A stretch of 64,000 nt of DNA from Candidatus Omnitrophota bacterium (GTDB lineage Bacteria; Omnitrophota; Gorgyraeia; Gygaellales; Profunditerraquicolaceae), in contig JAPLLX010000003.1 of assembly GCA_026387335.1 (NCBI GenBank), positions 138,230 to 202,229 on the forward strand, in the 5' to 3' direction. The notes under the pieces were generated by a model. That model had not been told where the DNA came from, made no database searches, and worked only from the letters and a program-made list of their open reading frames with translations. Each line of letters opens with the position of its first letter. Within the stretch, counting starts at the first letter, position 1. The position numbers were made by a program, and so were the translations under genes. Shown here piece by piece: positions 40,661 through 49,752 of this stretch.

Positions 40661-41548
40661 TTATTTAGCTGGTTTTTCTTCCTTCTTCTTCAAGGGTAAA
40701 AAACCGGCCATTTCACCGATTACATTGACTAATTCCGTATTCGCCGGAACGACAATTTTTGCGTTATTCTGCAATGATTTTTCAACAGCTTCTAATTTCC
40801 GCAGCACCTGAGCATTCCCCACAAAATATTCTTCCGCTGCTTCATTGACTAGTTTAATCGCCGTTGCTTCGCCTTCAGCTTCTAAGATTCTTGCCTGCTT
40901 TATACCTTCAGCCTTTTTAATCTCGGCGCGTTTCTGTCCATCAGCAGCAGTTTCGGTGGCGGTAGCAAAATCAATTGCCGCTATTTTTTCATTCTCGGCC
41001 TTGACCACCTTATTCATTGTCTCCTGGACATCTTTAGGAGGATCGATTTCTTTTAATTCGGTCCTGACTATCTCTAAACCCCAGGTTCCGGTTTCACTGC
41101 AAAGAGTATTATGCAACTCCGCGTTAATTTTGCCTCTCTCGCTGTTCGCGGATTTTAGAGTAAGTGTACCGATAATATTTCTTAGGGTTGTGCGGGCGAG
41201 ATTTACAATCTGCCACTGGTAATTATTCACGCTATATTGCGAACTTTTTACACTTTGCTCGTCTGCCTTGACCTTAAAATAAACCTGCGCGTCAACTTTG
41301 GCATTCAGATTATCATTAGTGATGATCTCCTGCGGCTCAGCATCCACCATTTGCTCAGTTGTATTAACCTGATAAATAACTTCGATAAAAGGGAAAATCC
41401 AGTTAAACCCGGGGTTAGCAAAACGGTTATACTTCCCAAATCTTTCCACTAGGCCGCGGTGCGTAGGCCGGACAATCCTGATACCCATAAAGAAAAATAA
41501 AACTACGCCAATAATTATTGCGACTGTAACATCCATACCCACCTCCAT
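40661..41548 (-). CDS. SPFH/band-7 (stomatin/prohibitin-like) membrane protein
   Basis: An N-terminal TM segment is followed by IVRPTHRGLVERFGKY, an SPFH domain. Confidence 0.8.
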   Translation of the reverse strand: MEVGMDVTVAIIIGVVLFFFMGIRIVRPTHRGLVERFGKYNRFANPGFNWIFPFIEVIYQVNTTEQMVDAEPQEIITNDNLNAKVDAQVYFKVKADEQSVKSSQYSVNNYQWQIVNLARTTLRNIIGTLTLKSANSERGKINAELHNTLCSETGTWGLEIVRTELKEIDPPKDVQETMNKVVKAENEKIAAIDFATATETAADGQKRAEIKKAEGIKQARILEAEGEATAIKLVNEAAEEYFVGNAQVLRKLEAVEKSLQNNAKIVVPANTELVNVIGEMAGFLPLKKKEEKPAK

Positions 41549-41572: not shown

Positions 41573-42571
41573 CTAAGCTATGCGCACTTTTTTATTGCCT
41601 TTAACAACTTCTCCGATAATCCAGGATTTTAACTTCTGGCTTTGTAGTTTTAAGATTATAGAATTTACCGACGCAGGCGTAACAATTAAAACCATGCCTA
41701 TGCCCATATTCAAGGTATGATACATTTCGCGTTCGGGTACATTACCCTTATTTTGAATAAGGCGGAATATTTTCGGCACATTCCAGGAATTTTTGTCAAT
41801 CTTAACATCCACATTACCGGGGAGGATCCTGGCGATCTTATCGTAAAAAGCTCCTCCGGTAATATGCGCGATTCCTTTGATAAATTTACTCGGTAATAAA
41901 CTTAAAACCTGTTTTACATAAATGCGCGTGGGCGTAAGCAACTCTTTACTCATCCGCTTAAGTTCGCTGGTAGAAAAAACTTTTCTCACCAATGAATAAC
42001 CGTTGGAATGAATTCCACTTGATTCTAAGCCAATAACCACATCGCCTGCCTGAATGCGGCTTCCGTCAATAATTTTATCCCGCTCAACCACTCCTACGCA
42101 AAACCCGGCAATATCATATTCTCCTGGCCTGTACATCCCGGGCATCTGCGCGGTCTCTCCGCCAATCAGAGAACAACCGGACTGAATACAGCCGTCGTTA
42201 ATGCCTTTTACGACGTCTATTAATACTTCTTCCTTAACTGTGCTGTGAGCGATGTAGTCCAGGAAAAATAACGGCTCAGCGCCCGCGCAGAGAATATCAT
42301 TCACATTCATCGCCACGGCGTCAATGCCTACGCTATCGTGCTTATTCACTAATCCCGCTATTTTTAATTTTGTGCCTACGCCGTCGCTTGAGGAGACCAG
42401 AACCGGATTTTTATATTTATTCTTATCCAGCTTAAAGAAACTACCAAACCCGCCGATATCTTTTAAAACTTCTGCCCGAAAAGATTTTCTAACCAATGGC
42501 TGGAGTTTAGATTTAAACGCGCTTGCGCTGTCTATATCCACCCCTGACTTCTTATAAGTTACTCTTTTCAT
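41573..42571 (-). CDS. purM: phosphoribosylformylglycinamidine cyclo-ligase (AIR synthetase)
   Basis: MKRVTYKKSGVDIDSA...DGVGTK...GGETAQMPG matches PurM. The start is trimmed so that it overlaps the purF stop as ATGA. The track ORF extends to 42673. Confidence 0.9.
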   Translation of the reverse strand: MKRVTYKKSGVDIDSASAFKSKLQPLVRKSFRAEVLKDIGGFGSFFKLDKNKYKNPVLVSSSDGVGTKLKIAGLVNKHDSVGIDAVAMNVNDILCAGAEPLFFLDYIAHSTVKEEVLIDVVKGINDGCIQSGCSLIGGETAQMPGMYRPGEYDIAGFCVGVVERDKIIDGSRIQAGDVVIGLESSGIHSNGYSLVRKVFSTSELKRMSKELLTPTRIYVKQVLSLLPSKFIKGIAHITGGAFYDKIARILPGNVDVKIDKNSWNVPKIFRLIQNKGNVPEREMYHTLNMGIGMVLIVTPASVNSIILKLQSQKLKSWIIGEVVKGNKKVRIA

Positions 42572-44013
42572 TTTATAATTTCTCCTTGGCCACAACAATG
42601 CGTCTCCAGCGAAAATTTTCCCTGCCTCTTCTCTGCCCTTACCGGATATTTTCCGGTCCAACAGGCAGCGCAATTCCCGATTCCGGAATTTTTAAAACAA
42701 CCCAGCATCCCCCCGAGGCTTAAATACCCCAGGCTATCCACTTCCATATACTGCCGGATTTTATCTAGCGATTCGTATTTATTGGCGATTAATTCGCTGG
42801 TTTTATGGAAATCAATCCCGTAAAAGCAGGGAAAGCGGTGCGGCGGACAAGATATCCTTAAATGCACTTCTTTAACTCCCGCTTTACGCAAATTGCGCAC
42901 GCGAATCTTGGAAGTTGTTCCGCGCACGATAGAATCATCAACCACGATGATCCGTTTTCCTTTTAGAACATCCCTGAGCAGGTTAAATTTAACCCGCACT
43001 CCTAAATCCCGCGTATCCTGCATCGGCTGGATAAATGTCCTGCCGACATAATGGTTACGGATGATCCCCAATTCTAACGGGATCCCCGATTCCTGAGAAT
43101 AACCCATGGCCGCTGAAAATCCTGAATCCGGAACAGGAACAACAAAATCCGCGTCCACCGGATGCTCCTGCGCAAGTTGGCTGCCTAATTTCCGCCTGAC
43201 TGAATGCACGGTCTCTCCGAAAACAACTGAATCCGGACGGGAAAAATAAACGTGCTCAAAGGTGCAGAAGGCGTGTTTATTGGAATGTAATTCTTTAGGT
43301 TTAATTGACCTTAAACCCGTGTCATTAATGATAACGATTTCGCCGGGTTCAATATCGCGGATATATTTAGCGCCGACTAAATCAAAGGCGCAGGTCTCTG
43401 AAGCTAAGACCCAGGAATTACCCAGCTTGCCTAAAGATAAGGGCCGAAAACCATACGGGTCCCTTATGCCGATAAGGCTGTTATCCGCGATCATAACTAA
43501 AGAATAAGCGCCTTTAATCCTTCTTAAGGCGTAAATAAGGCTATCTTCCAGATTGCGCAATTTGGCCCGGGCCATAAGATGAATAATTATTTCGGAATCG
43601 GTTGTAGTCTGAAAAATTGAACCGGTCTTTTCCAAATACTGGCGCAGTTCCAGAGAATTCACCAGGTTGCCATTATGCGCGATGCAAACCGAACCCTTGG
43701 CATAATCAATTAAAAGCGGCTGGGAATTTTTTAAGACGCTTGAGCCGGTGGTAGAATAACGCACATGGCCCACAGCCATATTTCCCTTGAGCCGGGCTAA
43801 GACCGCCTCATTAAAAACATCGCTGACTAAACCCATTTCTTTATGTATGGATAAAACGCCTTTGTTATTGGCGACAATTCCGCAGGCTTCCTGGCCCCTA
43901 TGCTGTAACGCGTAGAGCCCAAGATAAGTAAGCCAACTGGCGTGTTTATTATTATTTATCCCGAATAAACCGCAATACTCCTTAGGTTCATCGTTATTAT
44001 TTTCTTTTGGCAT
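42568..44013 (-). CDS. purF: amidophosphoribosyltransferase (propeptide plus Cys1 Ntn glutaminase, PRTase, C-terminal Fe-S cysteines)
   Basis: A propeptide MPKENNNDEPKEY precedes CGLFGI...LQHRGQEA. The PRPP loop is VVDDSIVRGTTS. The C-terminal cysteines are CFKNSGIGNCAACW. Confidence 0.9.
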   Translation of the reverse strand: MPKENNNDEPKEYCGLFGINNNKHASWLTYLGLYALQHRGQEACGIVANNKGVLSIHKEMGLVSDVFNEAVLARLKGNMAVGHVRYSTTGSSVLKNSQPLLIDYAKGSVCIAHNGNLVNSLELRQYLEKTGSIFQTTTDSEIIIHLMARAKLRNLEDSLIYALRRIKGAYSLVMIADNSLIGIRDPYGFRPLSLGKLGNSWVLASETCAFDLVGAKYIRDIEPGEIVIINDTGLRSIKPKELHSNKHAFCTFEHVYFSRPDSVVFGETVHSVRRKLGSQLAQEHPVDADFVVPVPDSGFSAAMGYSQESGIPLELGIIRNHYVGRTFIQPMQDTRDLGVRVKFNLLRDVLKGKRIIVVDDSIVRGTTSKIRVRNLRKAGVKEVHLRISCPPHRFPCFYGIDFHKTSELIANKYESLDKIRQYMEVDSLGYLSLGGMLGCFKNSGIGNCAACWTGKYPVRAEKRQGKFSLETHCCGQGEIIK

Positions 44014-45421
44014 TTTTTACTCCGTTTTTTGGCTCTTTACCTAACCAACAGTATAAGCAAAGTTTATTTTCCGGCAGGCCTATCGCCGCGATCATATCCT
44101 TTAACTTCTGGTATTTTAAAGTAGTCGCTCCCAAATCTTTGTTAATCCATTCTACCATTTTTTTATGTTCGCCAGAATTTTCATTCAGGTATTTGGATAA
44201 ATTCTTGGTATCGCTTCCCGTAAGGGCCTTGATGGCTTTACGCGCCGCCAGTTCGTGGATGCTGCGGGTGGAATAATTGTATTTACAGGGAAACATTAAT
44301 GGCGGACAGGCTATCCTTAAATGCACTTCCTTGGCCCCGTTTTCTTTAAGCTTACGTATCGTATAATTTTTTAGCTGTGTGCCGCGCACAATGGAATCAT
44401 CGCAAAAAACCAGGCGTCGGCCTTTAATGATCTCCAGAATGGGGATTAATTTCATCTTGGCGATTAAATCGCGCTGCTCCTGGGTAACCGGCGTATAGCT
44501 GCGGTCATACCCGGGAGTATATTTTATTAACGGCCGGCGCAGCGGTATCCCGGATTCCATACTATAGCCTATGGCGTGGGCTGTCCCTGAATCCGGAATG
44601 CCGGCGACCATATCGGCGTCTATAGTGTCGGATTTTGCCAACATGCAGCCGCAGCGTTCCCTGGACATCTCCACATTTATATTCTCATAACAAGAAGCCG
44701 GAAATCCCGTATAAATCCATAAGAAAGAGCAGATCTGGTTAGTCTTGGCGCCTTTACGTTTTAGCTTAATCCCGGACTCATCAAGCAAAACTATTTCGCC
44801 CGGCTCAAGATACTTCACAATTTTATAACCTAAGTTTAAAAAGGCGGAGGTTTCGGTGGTCACTGCCCAATCCTTGCCTTTCTTACCGACGATTAACGGC
44901 GTTAATCCGAACCTGTCCCGGGCAGCGTAGATCCCGTCCTTATTTAATAATAATAACGAGCATGACCCTTCAATTTTAAGGAACATTTTTTCAATACCGC
45001 TGACAATATTTTTTCCGCGGATAAGCATTTTAGCGATCAGCTCGGTAAAGTTTACCCGGCCGGAGGTGACTTCGCTAAAAGACTTCCCCTCCTTAAACAG
45101 CTCTTTGGCTAACTTCTCGGCATTATCAATATACCCATTGGTAATAATGGCGAACGGCCCGAATTTGGAATTTATCACCACCGGCTGTTCGTCTCTGGCG
45201 CTGATGGCGCCTATGCCTTTAGCCCCTTCCATATTTTTATAGTCTTCGTGAAATTTAGCCTTAAACTGGCTGCCCCTGATATCGTGGATTTTGCGCTGTA
45301 ATCCTTTTCCGAATACGGCTAACCCGGCAAATTGCGTGCCCAGGTGCGAATGATAATCCGTGCCATAATATAAATCCTCAAGGCAGTGTTTCTTGGAAAT
45401 TACCCCAAATATACCGCTCAT
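43997..45421 (-). CDS. PurF paralog lacking the Ntn catalytic cysteine (glutaminase-dead amidophosphoribosyltransferase-like)
   Basis: The protein begins MSGIFGV (Ser where Cys1 is expected), and the oxyanion Arg is replaced (YHSHLGTQFAGL versus LQHRGQEA). The PRTase motif VFCDDSIVRGTQ and the C-terminal Cys cluster are retained. A strong SD (GAGGAG) and an in-frame stop sit directly upstream of the ATG. Confidence 0.7.
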   Translation of the reverse strand: MSGIFGVISKKHCLEDLYYGTDYHSHLGTQFAGLAVFGKGLQRKIHDIRGSQFKAKFHEDYKNMEGAKGIGAISARDEQPVVINSKFGPFAIITNGYIDNAEKLAKELFKEGKSFSEVTSGRVNFTELIAKMLIRGKNIVSGIEKMFLKIEGSCSLLLLNKDGIYAARDRFGLTPLIVGKKGKDWAVTTETSAFLNLGYKIVKYLEPGEIVLLDESGIKLKRKGAKTNQICSFLWIYTGFPASCYENINVEMSRERCGCMLAKSDTIDADMVAGIPDSGTAHAIGYSMESGIPLRRPLIKYTPGYDRSYTPVTQEQRDLIAKMKLIPILEIIKGRRLVFCDDSIVRGTQLKNYTIRKLKENGAKEVHLRIACPPLMFPCKYNYSTRSIHELAARKAIKALTGSDTKNLSKYLNENSGEHKKMVEWINKDLGATTLKYQKLKDMIAAIGLPENKLCLYCWLGKEPKNGVKNAKRK

Positions 45422-45432
45422 TTATCTTCTCC

Positions 45433-46212
45433 TCACAGATGCTTCCTGCAATATGCTACCCCGTTTTTAAAAATACCTAACCCGTCTCCCTGTTTTTTAT
45501 TCTTCAAACTGAACCAGCGCGGATGCTGATGAATTTCAATGTGCCTTTCCGGATGCGGCATAAGCCCTAAAATCCTGCCTGTCGCATCAGTAATACCGGC
45601 GATATCTTCCAGCGAGCCATTGGGGTTATCCGGATAGCTACCAGGCTTTCCCCGCGCGTCGCAATATTTAAAAATAATCTGGCTGTTTTTTTTAAGCTTA
45701 TTCAAAATAGAATTATCTTTTACAATAAATTTACCTTCGCCGTGGGCAACCGGCAAATAAATAATCTGCGGGATATTCTTGGTCCAAATACATTTACCGC
45801 TACTTTTTAGATACACCCAGCGGTCTTCAAATTTTCCTGAATCATTAATAATAAGGCTTGTGTCCTGTTCAGAATTCGCATTCCCAGGGAGTAAACCGCT
45901 CTTAACTAAAATCTGAAAACCATTACAAATTCCGATAATTAATTTACCTTCGTTAACAAATTGCCTTAGCTCTTCTCCTAACTTACACTTTAACTCATTG
46001 GCAAAGACCTTACCTGAGGCAATATCATCCCCGTAACTAAACCCTCCGGAGAAAGCCAGGATTTGATAATCCGCCAGGCTCTTCTTTTCCCCAATAAGAT
46101 CATTTATATGGACGAACTCGCTCTCTGCCCCGGCTTTAGCGAAAGCAAAAGCAGTCTCTTTATCGCAATTGGTCCCGGCTGTCCTGATTACACAAACTTT
46201 AACCTTGCGCAT
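45433..46212 (-). CDS. purQ: phosphoribosylformylglycinamidine synthase, glutaminase subunit
   Basis: MRKVKVCVIRTAGTNCD...GICNGFQIL matches a class I GATase PurQ. Confidence 0.85.
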   Translation of the reverse strand: MRKVKVCVIRTAGTNCDKETAFAFAKAGAESEFVHINDLIGEKKSLADYQILAFSGGFSYGDDIASGKVFANELKCKLGEELRQFVNEGKLIIGICNGFQILVKSGLLPGNANSEQDTSLIINDSGKFEDRWVYLKSSGKCIWTKNIPQIIYLPVAHGEGKFIVKDNSILNKLKKNSQIIFKYCDARGKPGSYPDNPNGSLEDIAGITDATGRILGLMPHPERHIEIHQHPRWFSLKNKKQGDGLGIFKNGVAYCRKHL

Positions 46213-46888
46213 AGAATTTCTTGATTGCCGCGACTACTTCCTTGGGTTTGTCAACTACCGTAAAAATATCCAAATCCGATTTACTGATATTCCCATTAGC
46301 CAGTACAGCTTCTTTCAACCAATCCAACAGCCCGTTCCAATAAACGCTTCCGAACAATATAACGGGAAATTTATTTATCCTCTCGGTCTGAATAAGGTTG
46401 ATCGCCTCAAAAAATTCATCCAGCGTGCCGTAACCTCCCGGCAAAATCACAAACGCCTTGGCGTATTTAACGAACATAACCTTCCTGACAAAAAAATAAC
46501 GAAAATCCAATAGAGTATCCACGTACTCATTTGGTTTTTGTTCGCAAGGAATATGGATGTTTAAACCGACGGAATGTCCCCCTGCCCGGCGCGTTCCCTT
46601 ATTTGCCGCTTCCATCATCCCGGGCCCGCTTCCGGTAATTACGGCGTAGCCTGCCTTGGCCACATGATAAGCGACTTCTTCACCCAATTTATAATATTCT
46701 GTGCCGCGCGTTGTCCGGGCTGAACCGAATATCGAAACAGCCTTACCGATTTTAGAAAGGACCTCAAAGCCTTCCACAAACTCAGACATAATCCGGAATA
46801 CGCGCCAGGGGTCTTCCCGCGTAAAATCGTTAACTAAATCTACCCTACGGATACAAGATTTTTTTACCATTTTAACGGCTCCTTCCAT
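46199..46888 (-). CDS. LOG-family (TIGR00730) nucleotide 5'-monophosphate phosphoribohydrolase
   Basis: VSIFGSARTT...ITGSGPGMMEAANKG...VILPGGYGTLDEFFE contains the PGGxGTxxE LOG motif. Confidence 0.75.
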   Translation of the reverse strand: MEGAVKMVKKSCIRRVDLVNDFTREDPWRVFRIMSEFVEGFEVLSKIGKAVSIFGSARTTRGTEYYKLGEEVAYHVAKAGYAVITGSGPGMMEAANKGTRRAGGHSVGLNIHIPCEQKPNEYVDTLLDFRYFFVRKVMFVKYAKAFVILPGGYGTLDEFFEAINLIQTERINKFPVILFGSVYWNGLLDWLKEAVLANGNISKSDLDIFTVVDKPKEVVAAIKKFYAQG

Positions 46889-49752
46889 ACTTTTTTTAAT
46901 TTATCAATTCCGGCGTTAACGCAGATTTTATTATCTAAGCCATAGACCTTAAATTCTTTCTTTTTGCTTACGCAGCCGATTAATCCGAAGGATTTGCCTT
47001 TTAAGCTTTGCTCAAAAGCTTTCTGATTTTTCTTTTCAACTTCCACGATAAACCGAGAGTTGGATTCGGAGAATAAAACGAAATCATTGCGTTTTTCTCC
47101 CACGTAAGGAACGCTGGATAAAAATATATCCATACCTAACCCGCCGGAAAAAGCCATTTCAGCTAAAGCTACTGCCAGCCCTCCTTCAGAGCAATCATGC
47201 ATTGAACGGATCAACCTTCTACTTGAAGCCCGGCTTAAAGAATCAAAAAGCGCTTTGGCTTTCTTTACCTTAACCTTAGGCACACTATTGCCGATAGCTC
47301 CGGATAAATCGTAATAATGCGAACCGCCCAATTCTTGATATGTTTGACCAACCACATAAACCAGGTTACCCGCGTCTTTAGCGTACATTGATATTGCTTT
47401 GCTCGCGTCTTCCATCACTGAAATTGCCGAAATTAAAAGCGTTCCGGGGATAGCCAGGGATTTACCGTGTTCGCTGTATTCGTTATACAGGCTGTCCTTT
47501 CCGGAAATAAACGGCGCGCCAAAACCAACTGCCGCGTCATAACAACCGTAAGCGCAGCGCACTAAACTTCCCAGCCTATCCGGCTTATCCGGATTGCCCC
47601 AGCAAAAATTATCTAAAATCGCGACTTCCTTTAATGAGCCGCCGCAGCTGATAATCTGGCGCAAGGCCTCGTCAATACAAGAAGCAGCCATCCAGTAAGG
47701 ATCAATAAATCCGTATCTAAAATTTATTCCGTTGGAGACAATTACGGCCTTAGAAGAGCTTAAAACCGGCCTGACGATACTGGCATCCGATGGCCCATCG
47801 TTATCTATACCAGTCAAAGGCTTCATCACTGAACCGCCTTGCACCTCGTGATCATACCTGCGGATTACCGATTCTTTAGAACAGATATCGTAATGCGCCA
47901 GCAGCTTTTCTAAAACCGGGGTCAAATCTTTGGCGGGATTTATTTTCGGCTCCCGGTGCTTAGCCGGAGCGTACACCGCCTCTTTGACAATTTTAGGCTG
48001 GCCCTTGTGAAGAAACTCCATGCCCAGCGAGCAAACCAGGTTATCCTTATAATAAAGTTCAAGTTTTTTTGTAGCGGTAAACTCGCCGATTACCGTAGCT
48101 TCCACATTCTCGTTTGTAAAAACTCCCAGTAAATCCTCAATTTTTTCTGGCGGGACGGATAAAACCATCCTCTCCTGCGATTCGGATATCCAGATCTCCA
48201 TATAAGATAACCCGTCATACTTCAAGGGCACTTTATCCAACTCCACCCGGGCGCCTAATTCCGCGGCCATCTCTCCAACCGCGCTGGATAATCCGCCTGC
48301 GCCGCAATCAGTAATCGCGCTGTATAAATTTTTGTCGCGGGCCTGTAAAATCGTATCCAGCATCTTTTTTTCCTGAATGGGATTACCGATCTGGACCGCG
48401 CCGCTGGAAATAGTTTCAGACTCATGCGTCAGCTCGCCGGATGAAAAAGTCGCGCCGTGAATACCGTCTCGACCGGTCCTGCCGCCGACAACTACCACTA
48501 AATCCCCGCTATTTGTTTTCTTAAAAGATTTCTCCCGCGGCATAATCCCGGCTGTGCCGCAATAGACCAGCGGATTGCCGGTAAATTTTTCATGGAAGAG
48601 TATGGCCCCGTTTACAGTAGGAATCCCCATTTTGTTCCCGTAATCGCGCACGCCGCTGACTACACCCTTCATCACCCGCTTAGGATGGAGCGCGCCAACA
48701 GGCAACTTACTAAACGGATAATCCGGCAGGCCAAAACAAAAAATATCGGTATTTAAAAATGGCTTAGCGCCTAATCCTGTCCCCAGCGGATCGCGGATTA
48801 CGCCTCCTATACCGGTATTCGCTCCGCCGAAAGGCTCTAATGCCGAAGGATGGTTGTGCGTTTCAACCTTAAAACAAATATTGTATAAATCGTCAAAACG
48901 GATTATGCCGGCGTTATCCTTAAATACCGAAACGCACCAGGGCTTGTTTAATTCTTGGGTTACTTTCATTATTGTCGCCTTAAGCAGGCCGTCAATTAAT
49001 TTTGTCTTTGTCGCCTTAATTTTCTCGGTATATTTAATCTTACCCCGGAATGTTTTATGCGAGCAATGTTCGGACCAGGTCTGGGCAATGGTCTCAAGCT
49101 CACAATCAGTAGGATTACGCTTTAAACTCTTAAAATAATTTTTTATTGAGCGCATCTCAGACAGGTTCAGGAATAACTGGCCCCTCTTGCTTATCTCCAG
49201 CAATCTCTCGTCTGAAGCGCCTAATAAGTCTACGTTAACCAGGTTAAACTGGTACCTTGAACTCAATCGGGGGCTGTCCCCGGAAGGGACTGTCCCCGAT
49301 TTTACAATGTGCTGGATTAATTTATTATAAAGGAGTTTTTCGCAGATAGTTTTTAGCTGGGTAGCGGAGAGTTTTCCCTGGATTATATATTTTTTCGCCG
49401 TCTTAACAGATTCAGCTCCGGATATGCCCAAATCGCGCACACCTTTTAAGGTGGATTCCTCAACCGGGTCCATAACTCCCGGATTATAAGCGACCTCAAC
49501 GATAAATTTATCTTTCTGATTTCTTTCCGCGGCAGGATTAACAGAATAACACTGATAAACTTTATCGGTAAGTAGTTCAGCGCAAATTTTTGTTATCTCT
49601 TCAACGCTAAGTTCGCCTTCAATAGTATAAACCTGGATAAACCTGACCTCTTTGACTGTCTTTATCCCGAAATCAAGGATATCGCTCTTGACGCCGGCTA
49701 CCGCAGCGTCAAAAATACCGCTTCTTTCTCTTACTTCAATTTTGTAAAGCAT
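46864..49752 (-). CDS. purL: phosphoribosylformylglycinamidine synthase II with N-terminal PurS domain(s) (PurS-PurL fusion)
   Basis: The N-terminal ~160 aa are PurS-like (MLYKIEVRERSGIFDAAVAGV...). The PurL AIRS domains follow (GIGGVIRDPLG). Confidence 0.9.
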   Translation of the reverse strand: MLYKIEVRERSGIFDAAVAGVKSDILDFGIKTVKEVRFIQVYTIEGELSVEEITKICAELLTDKVYQCYSVNPAAERNQKDKFIVEVAYNPGVMDPVEESTLKGVRDLGISGAESVKTAKKYIIQGKLSATQLKTICEKLLYNKLIQHIVKSGTVPSGDSPRLSSRYQFNLVNVDLLGASDERLLEISKRGQLFLNLSEMRSIKNYFKSLKRNPTDCELETIAQTWSEHCSHKTFRGKIKYTEKIKATKTKLIDGLLKATIMKVTQELNKPWCVSVFKDNAGIIRFDDLYNICFKVETHNHPSALEPFGGANTGIGGVIRDPLGTGLGAKPFLNTDIFCFGLPDYPFSKLPVGALHPKRVMKGVVSGVRDYGNKMGIPTVNGAILFHEKFTGNPLVYCGTAGIMPREKSFKKTNSGDLVVVVGGRTGRDGIHGATFSSGELTHESETISSGAVQIGNPIQEKKMLDTILQARDKNLYSAITDCGAGGLSSAVGEMAAELGARVELDKVPLKYDGLSYMEIWISESQERMVLSVPPEKIEDLLGVFTNENVEATVIGEFTATKKLELYYKDNLVCSLGMEFLHKGQPKIVKEAVYAPAKHREPKINPAKDLTPVLEKLLAHYDICSKESVIRRYDHEVQGGSVMKPLTGIDNDGPSDASIVRPVLSSSKAVIVSNGINFRYGFIDPYWMAASCIDEALRQIISCGGSLKEVAILDNFCWGNPDKPDRLGSLVRCAYGCYDAAVGFGAPFISGKDSLYNEYSEHGKSLAIPGTLLISAISVMEDASKAISMYAKDAGNLVYVVGQTYQELGGSHYYDLSGAIGNSVPKVKVKKAKALFDSLSRASSRRLIRSMHDCSEGGLAVALAEMAFSGGLGMDIFLSSVPYVGEKRNDFVLFSESNSRFIVEVEKKNQKAFEQSLKGKSFGLIGCVSKKKEFKVYGLDNKICVNAGIDKLKKVWKEPLKW

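Follow-up and report, generated by a model that had tools for sequence, protein, structure and literature searches.

A PurF paralog without its glutaminase nucleophile in the purine operon of an Omnitrophota bacterium: a candidate ammonia-dependent phosphoribosylamine synthase

This study describes a PurF-family paralog, hereafter labelled PAR, that is encoded at 43997-45421 on the minus strand of a 64,000-nucleotide stretch of DNA from a Candidatus Omnitrophota bacterium (GenBank assembly GCA_026387335.1, contig JAPLLX010000003.1, positions 138,230 to 202,229 of the forward strand; this whole stretch is called the window). PurF, the first enzyme of purine synthesis, catalyses its committed step, which is under feedback regulation, and is, to our knowledge, treated as universally glutamine-dependent. 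Judged from its sequence, PAR is a real gene and belongs to a widespread branch of PurF with a dead glutaminase domain, and we propose below that it may make 5-phosphoribosylamine (PRA) directly from ammonia.

The locus

In the direction of transcription the locus comprises purB, followed further on by a purS-purL fusion, a LOG/TIGR00730-family gene, purQ, PAR, purF, purM and a Band-7 gene, with purD and purE located further downstream. The features referred to in the text are the following, where PRTase stands for phosphoribosyltransferase and FGAM for formylglycinamidine ribonucleotide:

43997..45421, minus strand: PAR, PurF-family paralog without the Cys1 nucleophile, 474 amino acids, starting MSGIFGVISKK (open reading frame, TIGR01134 and 1ao0 match)
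44732..45421, minus strand: class-II (N-terminal nucleophile (Ntn) type) amidotransferase-like domain of PAR, residues 1-230 (Pfam GATase_7, 1.2e-14; catalytic and glutamine-binding residues replaced)
44000..44731, minus strand: type-I PRTase domain of PAR, residues 231-474 (alignment with B. subtilis PurF)
45429..45434, minus strand: Shine-Dalgarno sequence of PAR, GAGGAG, overlapping the purQ stop codon, 8 nt 5' of the ATG (sequence)
42568..44013, minus strand: canonical purF, glutamine-dependent and B. subtilis-type, with propeptide and Fe-S cysteines (TIGR01134 at 518 bits, motifs)
45433..46212, minus strand: purQ, FGAM synthase glutaminase subunit, directly 5' of PAR (annotation)
46199..46888, minus strand: LOG/TIGR00730-family gene, overlapping both purSL (25 nt) and purQ (14 nt) (annotation)
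46864..49752, minus strand: purS-purL fusion, FGAM synthase large subunit (annotation)
41573..42571, minus strand: purM, with an ATG start at 42571 (start inferred from sequence)

The gene and its start

The N-terminal sequence of PAR is MSGIFGVISKKHC and its stop codon occupies positions 43997-43999. On the minus strand the DNA 5' of the gene reads CATCTG-TGA-GGAGAAGATAA-ATG, where the TGA (45433-45435) is the stop codon of purQ, leaving a gap of 11 nt between purQ and PAR. Because an in-frame TAA (45422-45424) directly abuts the ATG, an upstream start that would supply a cysteine is impossible. A first-pass annotation, made from the letters of the window, had described a Cys1-less MSGIFGV start with a strong Shine-Dalgarno sequence and a stop codon just before the ATG, a HLGTQFAG motif in place of the canonical one, and a retained phosphoribosyl pyrophosphate (PRPP) loop and C-terminal Fe-S cysteines. 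All of these are found in the sequence: the neighbouring purF reads HRGQEACG where PAR has HLGTQFAG, and PAR possesses DDSIVRGT as well as C231, C379, C455 and C458.

The same annotation had named a sequencing error or another start yielding an N-terminal Cys as one way in which it could be wrong, and both are ruled out. A 100% identical protein is on record at NCBI (Candidatus Omnitrophica metagenome-assembled genome, MAG), independent metagenomes contain one that is 98% identical, and 119 of the 120 closest homologs (73-100% identity) begin with M-S-G-[ILVMT]-F-G, the remaining one being N-terminally truncated. Ratios of nonsynonymous to synonymous substitution rates (dN/dS) were calculated against the PAR genes of two other loci (L088 and L089; loci are designated by L numbers throughout) and came to 0.05 for the N-domain (residues 1-230) and 0.09-0.13 for the C-domain (residues 231-474). 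The dead N-domain of PAR is hence not decaying; purifying selection constrains it no less strongly than the catalytic half. Since identical and nearly identical proteins exist, the start is shared by the full-length homologs and dN/dS is low, the loss of the cysteine is not an artefact.

The purF gene next to PAR is canonical, as the first-pass annotation had stated, with a 13-residue propeptide, the motifs CGLFGI, HRGQE, GHVRYST, HNGN and TDSE, and a score of 518 bits on TIGR01134, a model on which PAR scores 213.6 bits and thus falls below the equivalog cut-off of 350. That annotation had called purF the upstream gene; in the direction of transcription PAR precedes purF, and the 3' end of PAR overlaps the start of purF by 17 nt.

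Fold and residue comparison

PAR has the two-domain architecture of PurF, an Ntn class-II amidotransferase domain followed by a type-I PRTase domain. Its alignment with B. subtilis PurF (1ao0, E = 1.6e-54) extends over the whole protein, and its TIGR01134 alignment spans residues 3-419. A search for PDB entries of the PAR family returned none. An AlphaFold (AF2) model (predicted local distance difference test, pLDDT, 74; predicted template modelling score, pTM, 0.75) superposed in Foldseek over its full length on 1ao0, 1gph and 6lbp with template modelling (TM) scores of about 0.73-0.76 (1ao0: 0.73/0.76). The model is moderately confident, partly owing to an alignment limited to close homologs, and was used for the overall fold alone, not for pocket geometry.

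For the residue-by-residue comparison 107 PAR-family sequences were set against 22 canonical PurF sequences. At the position of Cys1 the PAR family has Gly (49 sequences), Ser (44), Thr (4) or Ala (3). Gln24 is replaced by Ser, Arg26 by Leu, Gln28 by Thr and His70 by Val, and the Arg-Tyr loop (Arg73/Tyr74, E. coli numbering) is shortened to S-D (or S-A). The first-pass annotation had singled out three further positions for alignment: Asn101 is mostly Val across the family, with the PAR of the window keeping N-G (TNGY), Gly102 is mostly kept, and Asp127 is variable. The annotation had also assigned the oxyanion hole to Arg26, which is the wrong residue, as the oxyanion hole of PurF is formed by Asn101/Gly102. 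The structural glycines and prolines of the glutaminase half are kept, and this half has acquired motifs specific to the family (G-x-D-Y-x-S-H-x-G-T, QFKxKF and GIGxISxxDxQP) together with near-invariant residues peculiar to it (D22, Y23, S25, F53, F57, S74 and N124).

The PRTase half presents a different picture. Nearly all residues that are invariant in canonical PurF persist here: R254, G258, P276, S278, G285, R307, R317, K324, D342-S-x-V-R-G and H367 occur in at least 86% of the family and mostly in at least 94%, with R307, R317 and K324 retained in 102-103 of the 107 members. The PAR of the window carries the PRPP loop CDDSIVRGTQ and the flexible-loop residues K300, R307, R317 and K324. 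C231, C379, C455 and C458 align with the canonical [4Fe-4S] ligands and are kept in 96-100 of the 107 members. Changes in this half comprise RGTT to RGTQ (T354 to Gln, 103/107), Glu240 to Leu, Arg246 to Phe/Tyr, the flexible-loop or channel residue Ile315 to Thr/Met, and about 25 residues inserted behind residue 394.

Among the hallmarks of PurF, PAR therefore lacks the Cys1 nucleophile, the glutamine-site residues and a score above the TIGR01134 cut-off, and possesses the PRPP-binding loop, the flexible-loop Lys/Arg residues and the four [4Fe-4S] cysteine ligands. The replacement of Cys1, Arg26, Gln28, Arg73/Tyr74, Asn101 and Asp127 in the family-wide comparison supports the proposal of the first-pass annotation that PAR is a glutaminase-dead protein with an intact PRTase half.

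One deviation from the cysteine pattern was observed in a Hadarchaeota PAR (L020:10001-11404), in which all four Fe-S cysteine positions are replaced together (A, S, N, V); this joint replacement points to a cluster-free variant, as in E. coli-type PurF.

Distribution and phylogeny

The PAR family was collected by a search of 1.8 billion representative proteins and by scanning one genome of each GTDB species for the sequence pattern. Its members begin M-[GSTA]-G-[ILF]-F-G and have G-T-D-Y-H-S-H-L-G-T where PurF has L-Q-H-R-G-Q-E. The family was found in at least 600 species (GTDB pattern scan) and in at least 15 bacterial and archaeal phyla. Taxa and gene neighbourhoods were surveyed in the best 80 PAR loci. 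Bacterial members of this set belong to the Omnitrophota, Planctomycetota, Spirochaetota, Elusimicrobiota, Thermodesulfobacteriota/Syntrophaceae, Bacteroidales (Prevotella, Bacteroides), Kiritimatiellia, Victivallis, Gemmatimonadota, Latescibacterota, Anaerolineae and Aminicenantes, and archaeal members to the Hadarchaeota, Methanosarcinales, Asgard groups and Altiarchaeota; no Thermoproteota were present among these best 80 loci.

The PAR of the window shares 30% identity with the neighbouring purF and 30-37% with canonical PurFs, as against a median of 50% with the PAR family (relatives 45-60%). A neighbor-joining tree groups 99 of 102 PAR sequences in one clade that contains no canonical PurF. 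As identity across phyla exceeds identity to the neighbouring gene and the sequences form a single clade, the family is old and PAR is not a local duplicate; a recent tandem duplication of purF was considered and is ruled out by the same figures. The description of PAR as a tandem paralog in the first-pass annotation is thus correct for its adjacent position and incorrect if taken to mean local duplication, and the survey for Cys1-less PurF paralogs which it suggested has revealed a widespread, separate family.

Several observations were made at the margins of the family. In a Spirochaetota MAG (L039:10001-11399) the PAR frame is split in two near residue 290, through either an assembly frameshift error or pseudogenization. 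P0203 (665 amino acids, 33% identity), which came from the search of representative proteins, is a distant Cys-less PurF-like protein with a C-terminal TIR domain (TIR_2, E = 1.4e-29), an architecture that suggests a role in anti-phage defence or as an NAD-consuming effector rather than in biosynthesis, and P0132 has C-terminal TPR repeats. Further PurF-like groups are represented by P0161, P0176, P0192, P0218, P0226, P0230 and P0247 and by P0207, P0208, P0233, P0238, P0251 and P0268. One further group keeps Cys1 and HRGQ and is without the Arg73/Tyr74 loop and Asn101; a second, which includes members named from Patescibacteria, has no Cys (M-A-G-x-x-G-L-S, H-L-G-E-E). PurF-like diversity extends beyond the division into canonical PurF and PAR.

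Genomic context

Purine genes adjoin PAR in several lineages. The gene order is purF-purM-PAR in Planctomycetota (L006, L014), purF-PAR in Anaerolineae (L059) and purP-PAR-purD in Methanosarcinales (L024), and PAR adjoins purF in the Asgard loci. In Hadarchaeota (L020) purD-PAR-purE is part of a nearly complete pur cluster that also includes purB, purM, purSL and purQ; no canonical purF was detected within 20 kb of this PAR, which is the sole PurF homolog of the cluster. About 80% of the 80 loci have no purF within 10 kb.

The occupancy of the position between purQ and purM was determined in syntenic Omnitrophota operons of the order purB-purSL-LOG-purQ-[X]-purM, which were compiled from genomes, single-protein look-ups and a metagenome scan anchored on purQ. 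The states of this slot were the following:

PAR only: L001, L081 (590-kb contig), L084/85, L090, L093, L099
purF only: L086 (1.19-Mb contig), L087, L092, L094, L096, L097, L105, L107, L108
PAR then purF: the window, L082/83, L088, L095, L104
purF then PAR: L018
neither, with purQ directly followed by purM (more distant operon relatives): L113, L116, L118, L125, L160

In the purQ tree a single tight clade includes purF-only, both-gene and PAR-only operons, and the presence of all three states within one clade is what a two-gene ancestor would be expected to leave behind if redundant genes were lost reciprocally. The PAR proteins of the PAR-only operons have the same dead glutaminase site. No close purF homolog (best 120 matches) was found on the PAR-only contigs (590 kb, 366 kb and 78.5 kb), a weak check that covers the same contig only.

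A second type of context involves genes for the use of free ammonia. A DUF1846/UPF0371 gene lies beside PAR in 8 of the 80 loci, on the same strand in 6 of these 8, and the eight loci come from three phyla:

Omnitrophota: L003 (4-nt overlap), L021, L023, L025 (order DUF1846-carB-PAR)
Pirellulales-labelled MAG: L005
Bacteroidales: L043, L057, L060

In addition, carB is located directly 5' of PAR in L013, L025, L040 and L078, with no carA directly 5' of that carB. Neither DUF1846 nor carB genes occur within the 64-kb window. The DUF1846 protein Spd_0310 (PyrJ) is synthetically lethal with pyrG, and in purified form it makes CTP from UTP with ammonia and not with glutamine (bioRxiv 10.1101/2024.09.24.614635). 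In view of this biochemistry, PAR travels with a proven ammonia-only substitute for a glutamine amidotransferase.

As for the remaining genes of the locus, every junction from purSL to purM is an overlap or a gap of at most 11 nt. The LOG/TIGR00730 family has as relatives the cytokinin-riboside-5'-phosphate phosphoribohydrolases and the nucleotide nucleosidase PpnN. Its member here occupies the same place in every syntenic Omnitrophota operon seen, namely in L001, L081-L088 and many of the L09x/L10x loci. The listed purM open reading frame begins at a TTG at 42673, inside purF; the ATG at 42571 is the likelier start because it gives an ATGA overlap with the purF stop codon and a PurM of normal length. 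A Band-7/HflK-like gene (40661-41548, minus strand) lies directly 3' of purM and holds this position in all syntenic Omnitrophota operons examined (L081-L087). An Rfam scan of the whole window yielded no family at gathering score, with no riboswitch before the purine genes and no tRNA or rRNA.

Relation to known systems

PAR resembles B. subtilis-type PurF (PDB 1ao0/1gph; TIGR01134) in its two-domain fold, PRPP loop, flexible loop, four [4Fe-4S] cysteines and purine operon. It differs from it in the absence of Cys1 and of a propeptide, in the replacement of Arg26, the Arg73/Tyr74 loop, Asn101 (family-wide) and Asp127, in its identity of about 30% and sub-cut-off score, and in the 25-residue insertion and RGTQ for RGTT.

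A Cys-less PurF homolog encoded near a real purF and other pur genes, PurF', has been described from Crenarchaeota and proposed to be ammonia-dependent, a suggestion only (Brown et al., 2011, Biol Direct 6:63, PMC3261824). The idea of ammonia dependence is therefore not new. The order purQ-PAR-purF-purM in the window fits the definition of PurF' (Cys-less, near a Cys-bearing purF and pur genes). In a comparison of the published description, PurF' differs from the PAR family in that it has been described from Crenarchaeota only and has Ala/Val first, whereas the PAR family has Gly/Ser and is mostly bacterial. What appears new beyond the note of 2011 is the bacterial breadth, the occupancy of one operon slot by either gene or by both, and the association with PyrJ and carB.

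PyrJ is similar to PAR as a glutamine-independent alternative to a glutamine amidotransferase step in nucleotide synthesis and as its physical neighbour in three phyla; it is unrelated in fold and reaction, and it has been demonstrated biochemically whereas PAR is known from sequence and context. A further parallel is provided by AsnB-like enzymes such as beta-lactam synthetase and carbapenam synthetase, class-II amidotransferase homologs that have lost Cys1 and keep the dead N-domain structurally while catalysis takes place in the C-terminal domain. These differ from PAR in having an ATP pyrophosphatase C-terminal domain and a chemistry other than the simple use of ammonia.

Putative function and alternative explanations

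On the strength of the slot alternation with purF and the PyrJ/carB neighbours we favour the prediction that PAR is a stand-alone ammonia-dependent PRA synthase that has given up glutamine hydrolysis, and we consider the chances that this is correct to be about even. PRPP would be bound in the PRTase site as in PurF, cytoplasmic NH3 that is not derived from a glutaminase would attack C1, and pyrophosphate would be released and PRA passed to PurD. The N-domain may be retained as a lid or scaffold closing over the PRTase site, and ammonia entry or regulation could perhaps take place there as well. PAR would act beside canonical PurF, as in the window, or in its place. Most of the taxa that carry PAR are known to live anaerobically in sediments, groundwater and guts, habitats in which ammonium is typically plentiful. 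Under such ammonium-rich, energy-poor conditions the PAR route would spare the cell the ATP that glutamine synthetase consumes per nitrogen. A precedent is offered by E. coli PurF, which upon replacement of Cys1 lost its glutamine-dependent activity and kept the ammonia-dependent one (Mei and Zalkin, 1989, as cited second-hand in PMC3261824). Of the three options raised in the first-pass annotation, the ammonia-dependent synthase is thus the one backed by the slot alternation and by PyrJ/carB, the partner of PurF is weakened, and the Ser-nucleophile variant is disfavoured, for the reasons given below.

Several points weigh against an ammonia-dependent PRA synthase. Our literature searches gave no experimental study of any Cys-less PurF. 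The PRTase changes (RGTQ, E240L, R246F/Y, Ile to Thr/Met) are family-wide, so that chemistry or regulation may differ from that of PurF, and the strongly conserved new motifs of the N-domain are not obviously needed by a mere structural lid. The PAR-only operons may carry purF elsewhere in the genome, the slot-empty operons imply that a PRA-forming gene can sit elsewhere, and the neighbours of PAR are heterogeneous and uninformative in about 80% of the loci.

The arrangement in the window itself, in which PAR and purF overlap and are co-translated, would also suit a non-catalytic or regulatory pseudoenzyme that joins canonical PurF, itself a dimer or tetramer, in hetero-oligomers and tunes feedback inhibition, stability or the hand-over of PRA to PurD. 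The two genes are likewise adjacent in L006/L014 (with purM between them), L018, L027, L029, L032, L054, L059, L082 and L088, the N-domain is strongly conserved though catalytically dead, and the change of R246 to F/Y near an Fe-S cysteine affects what we take to be the allosteric nucleotide site of the B. subtilis structure. We nevertheless regard such a partnership as unlikely: most loci have no purF nearby, PAR is alone in the purF slot in at least six operons and the only PurF homolog in the Hadarchaeota cluster, a complete set of PRPP-binding and flexible-loop residues conserved across phyla is not needed by a non-catalytic partner, and the link to PyrJ/carB is left unexplained. The new invariant residues of the N-domain, the substitutions at T354, E240, R246 and I315 and the 25-residue insertion could alternatively indicate a neofunctionalized PRTase that uses an acceptor other than ammonia, or whose remodelled N-domain accommodates a different ligand, with a different product as the outcome; the location of most PAR loci outside pur operons and the fusion of a distant member to a TIR domain are in line with this. 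We rate it as distinctly improbable, given that the informative contexts are those of purine synthesis (purD, purM, purE, purP, purQ) or of ammonia-dependent nucleotide synthesis and that the exchange of PAR and purF within a single operon slot speaks for a common product.

Two further explanations retain a role for glutamine or another amide. PAR directly follows purQ in the Omnitrophota operon, separated by the 11-nt gap, and might receive glutamine-derived ammonia from a separate glutaminase such as this adjacent class-I amidotransferase or from another partner. Outside the Omnitrophota, however, PAR is rarely located beside purQ or any glutamine amidotransferase gene, and operons without PAR have canonical purF in exactly this place behind purQ, so that the proximity of PAR and purQ is a matter of operon order; a dependence of this kind is very improbable in our judgement. 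We attach hardly any credence to PAR being an N-terminal Ser/Thr nucleophile hydrolase in which Ser2, exposed by removal of the Met, attacks glutamine or another amide. Position 2 is Ser in each of the 119 full-length proteins that the set of 120 closest Omnitrophota homologs contains, is always small, which permits Met excision, and is the column at which 91% of the family start exactly, yet the first residue is not a conserved Ser/Thr: it is Gly in about half of the family (49/107) and Ala in 3/107, which makes a Ser nucleophile unlikely. Moreover, the residues that bind the carboxylate and amine of glutamine are gone together with the oxyanion Asn, and E. coli PurF with Cys1 changed to Ser is without glutamine-dependent activity, as reported second-hand in PMC3261824.

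Implications

We tentatively suggest, as a possibility that is probably not correct in full, that PAR, PyrJ and stand-alone CarB form a glutamine-independent, ammonia-only route of purine and pyrimidine synthesis in anaerobes, with PAR fully replacing PurF in some lineages. If such a route existed, the committed step of purine synthesis would come in two forms that are kept, swapped or lost according to nitrogen and energy supply.

The PAR family carries the plain name amidophosphoribosyltransferase in databases, and metabolic reconstructions consequently count it as normal PurF. If PAR is indeed ammonia-dependent, genome-based inferences on glutamine demand and purine auxotrophy would need correction, and many anaerobes (gut Bacteroidales, Prevotella, Omnitrophota, Planctomycetota, syntrophs, methanogens and Asgard archaea) would have a cheaper entry of nitrogen into purines; the recently discovered ammonia-only CTP synthase PyrJ would then be part of a wider pattern. 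The family is also a clear-cut example from nature of a dead amidotransferase domain held under strong selection.

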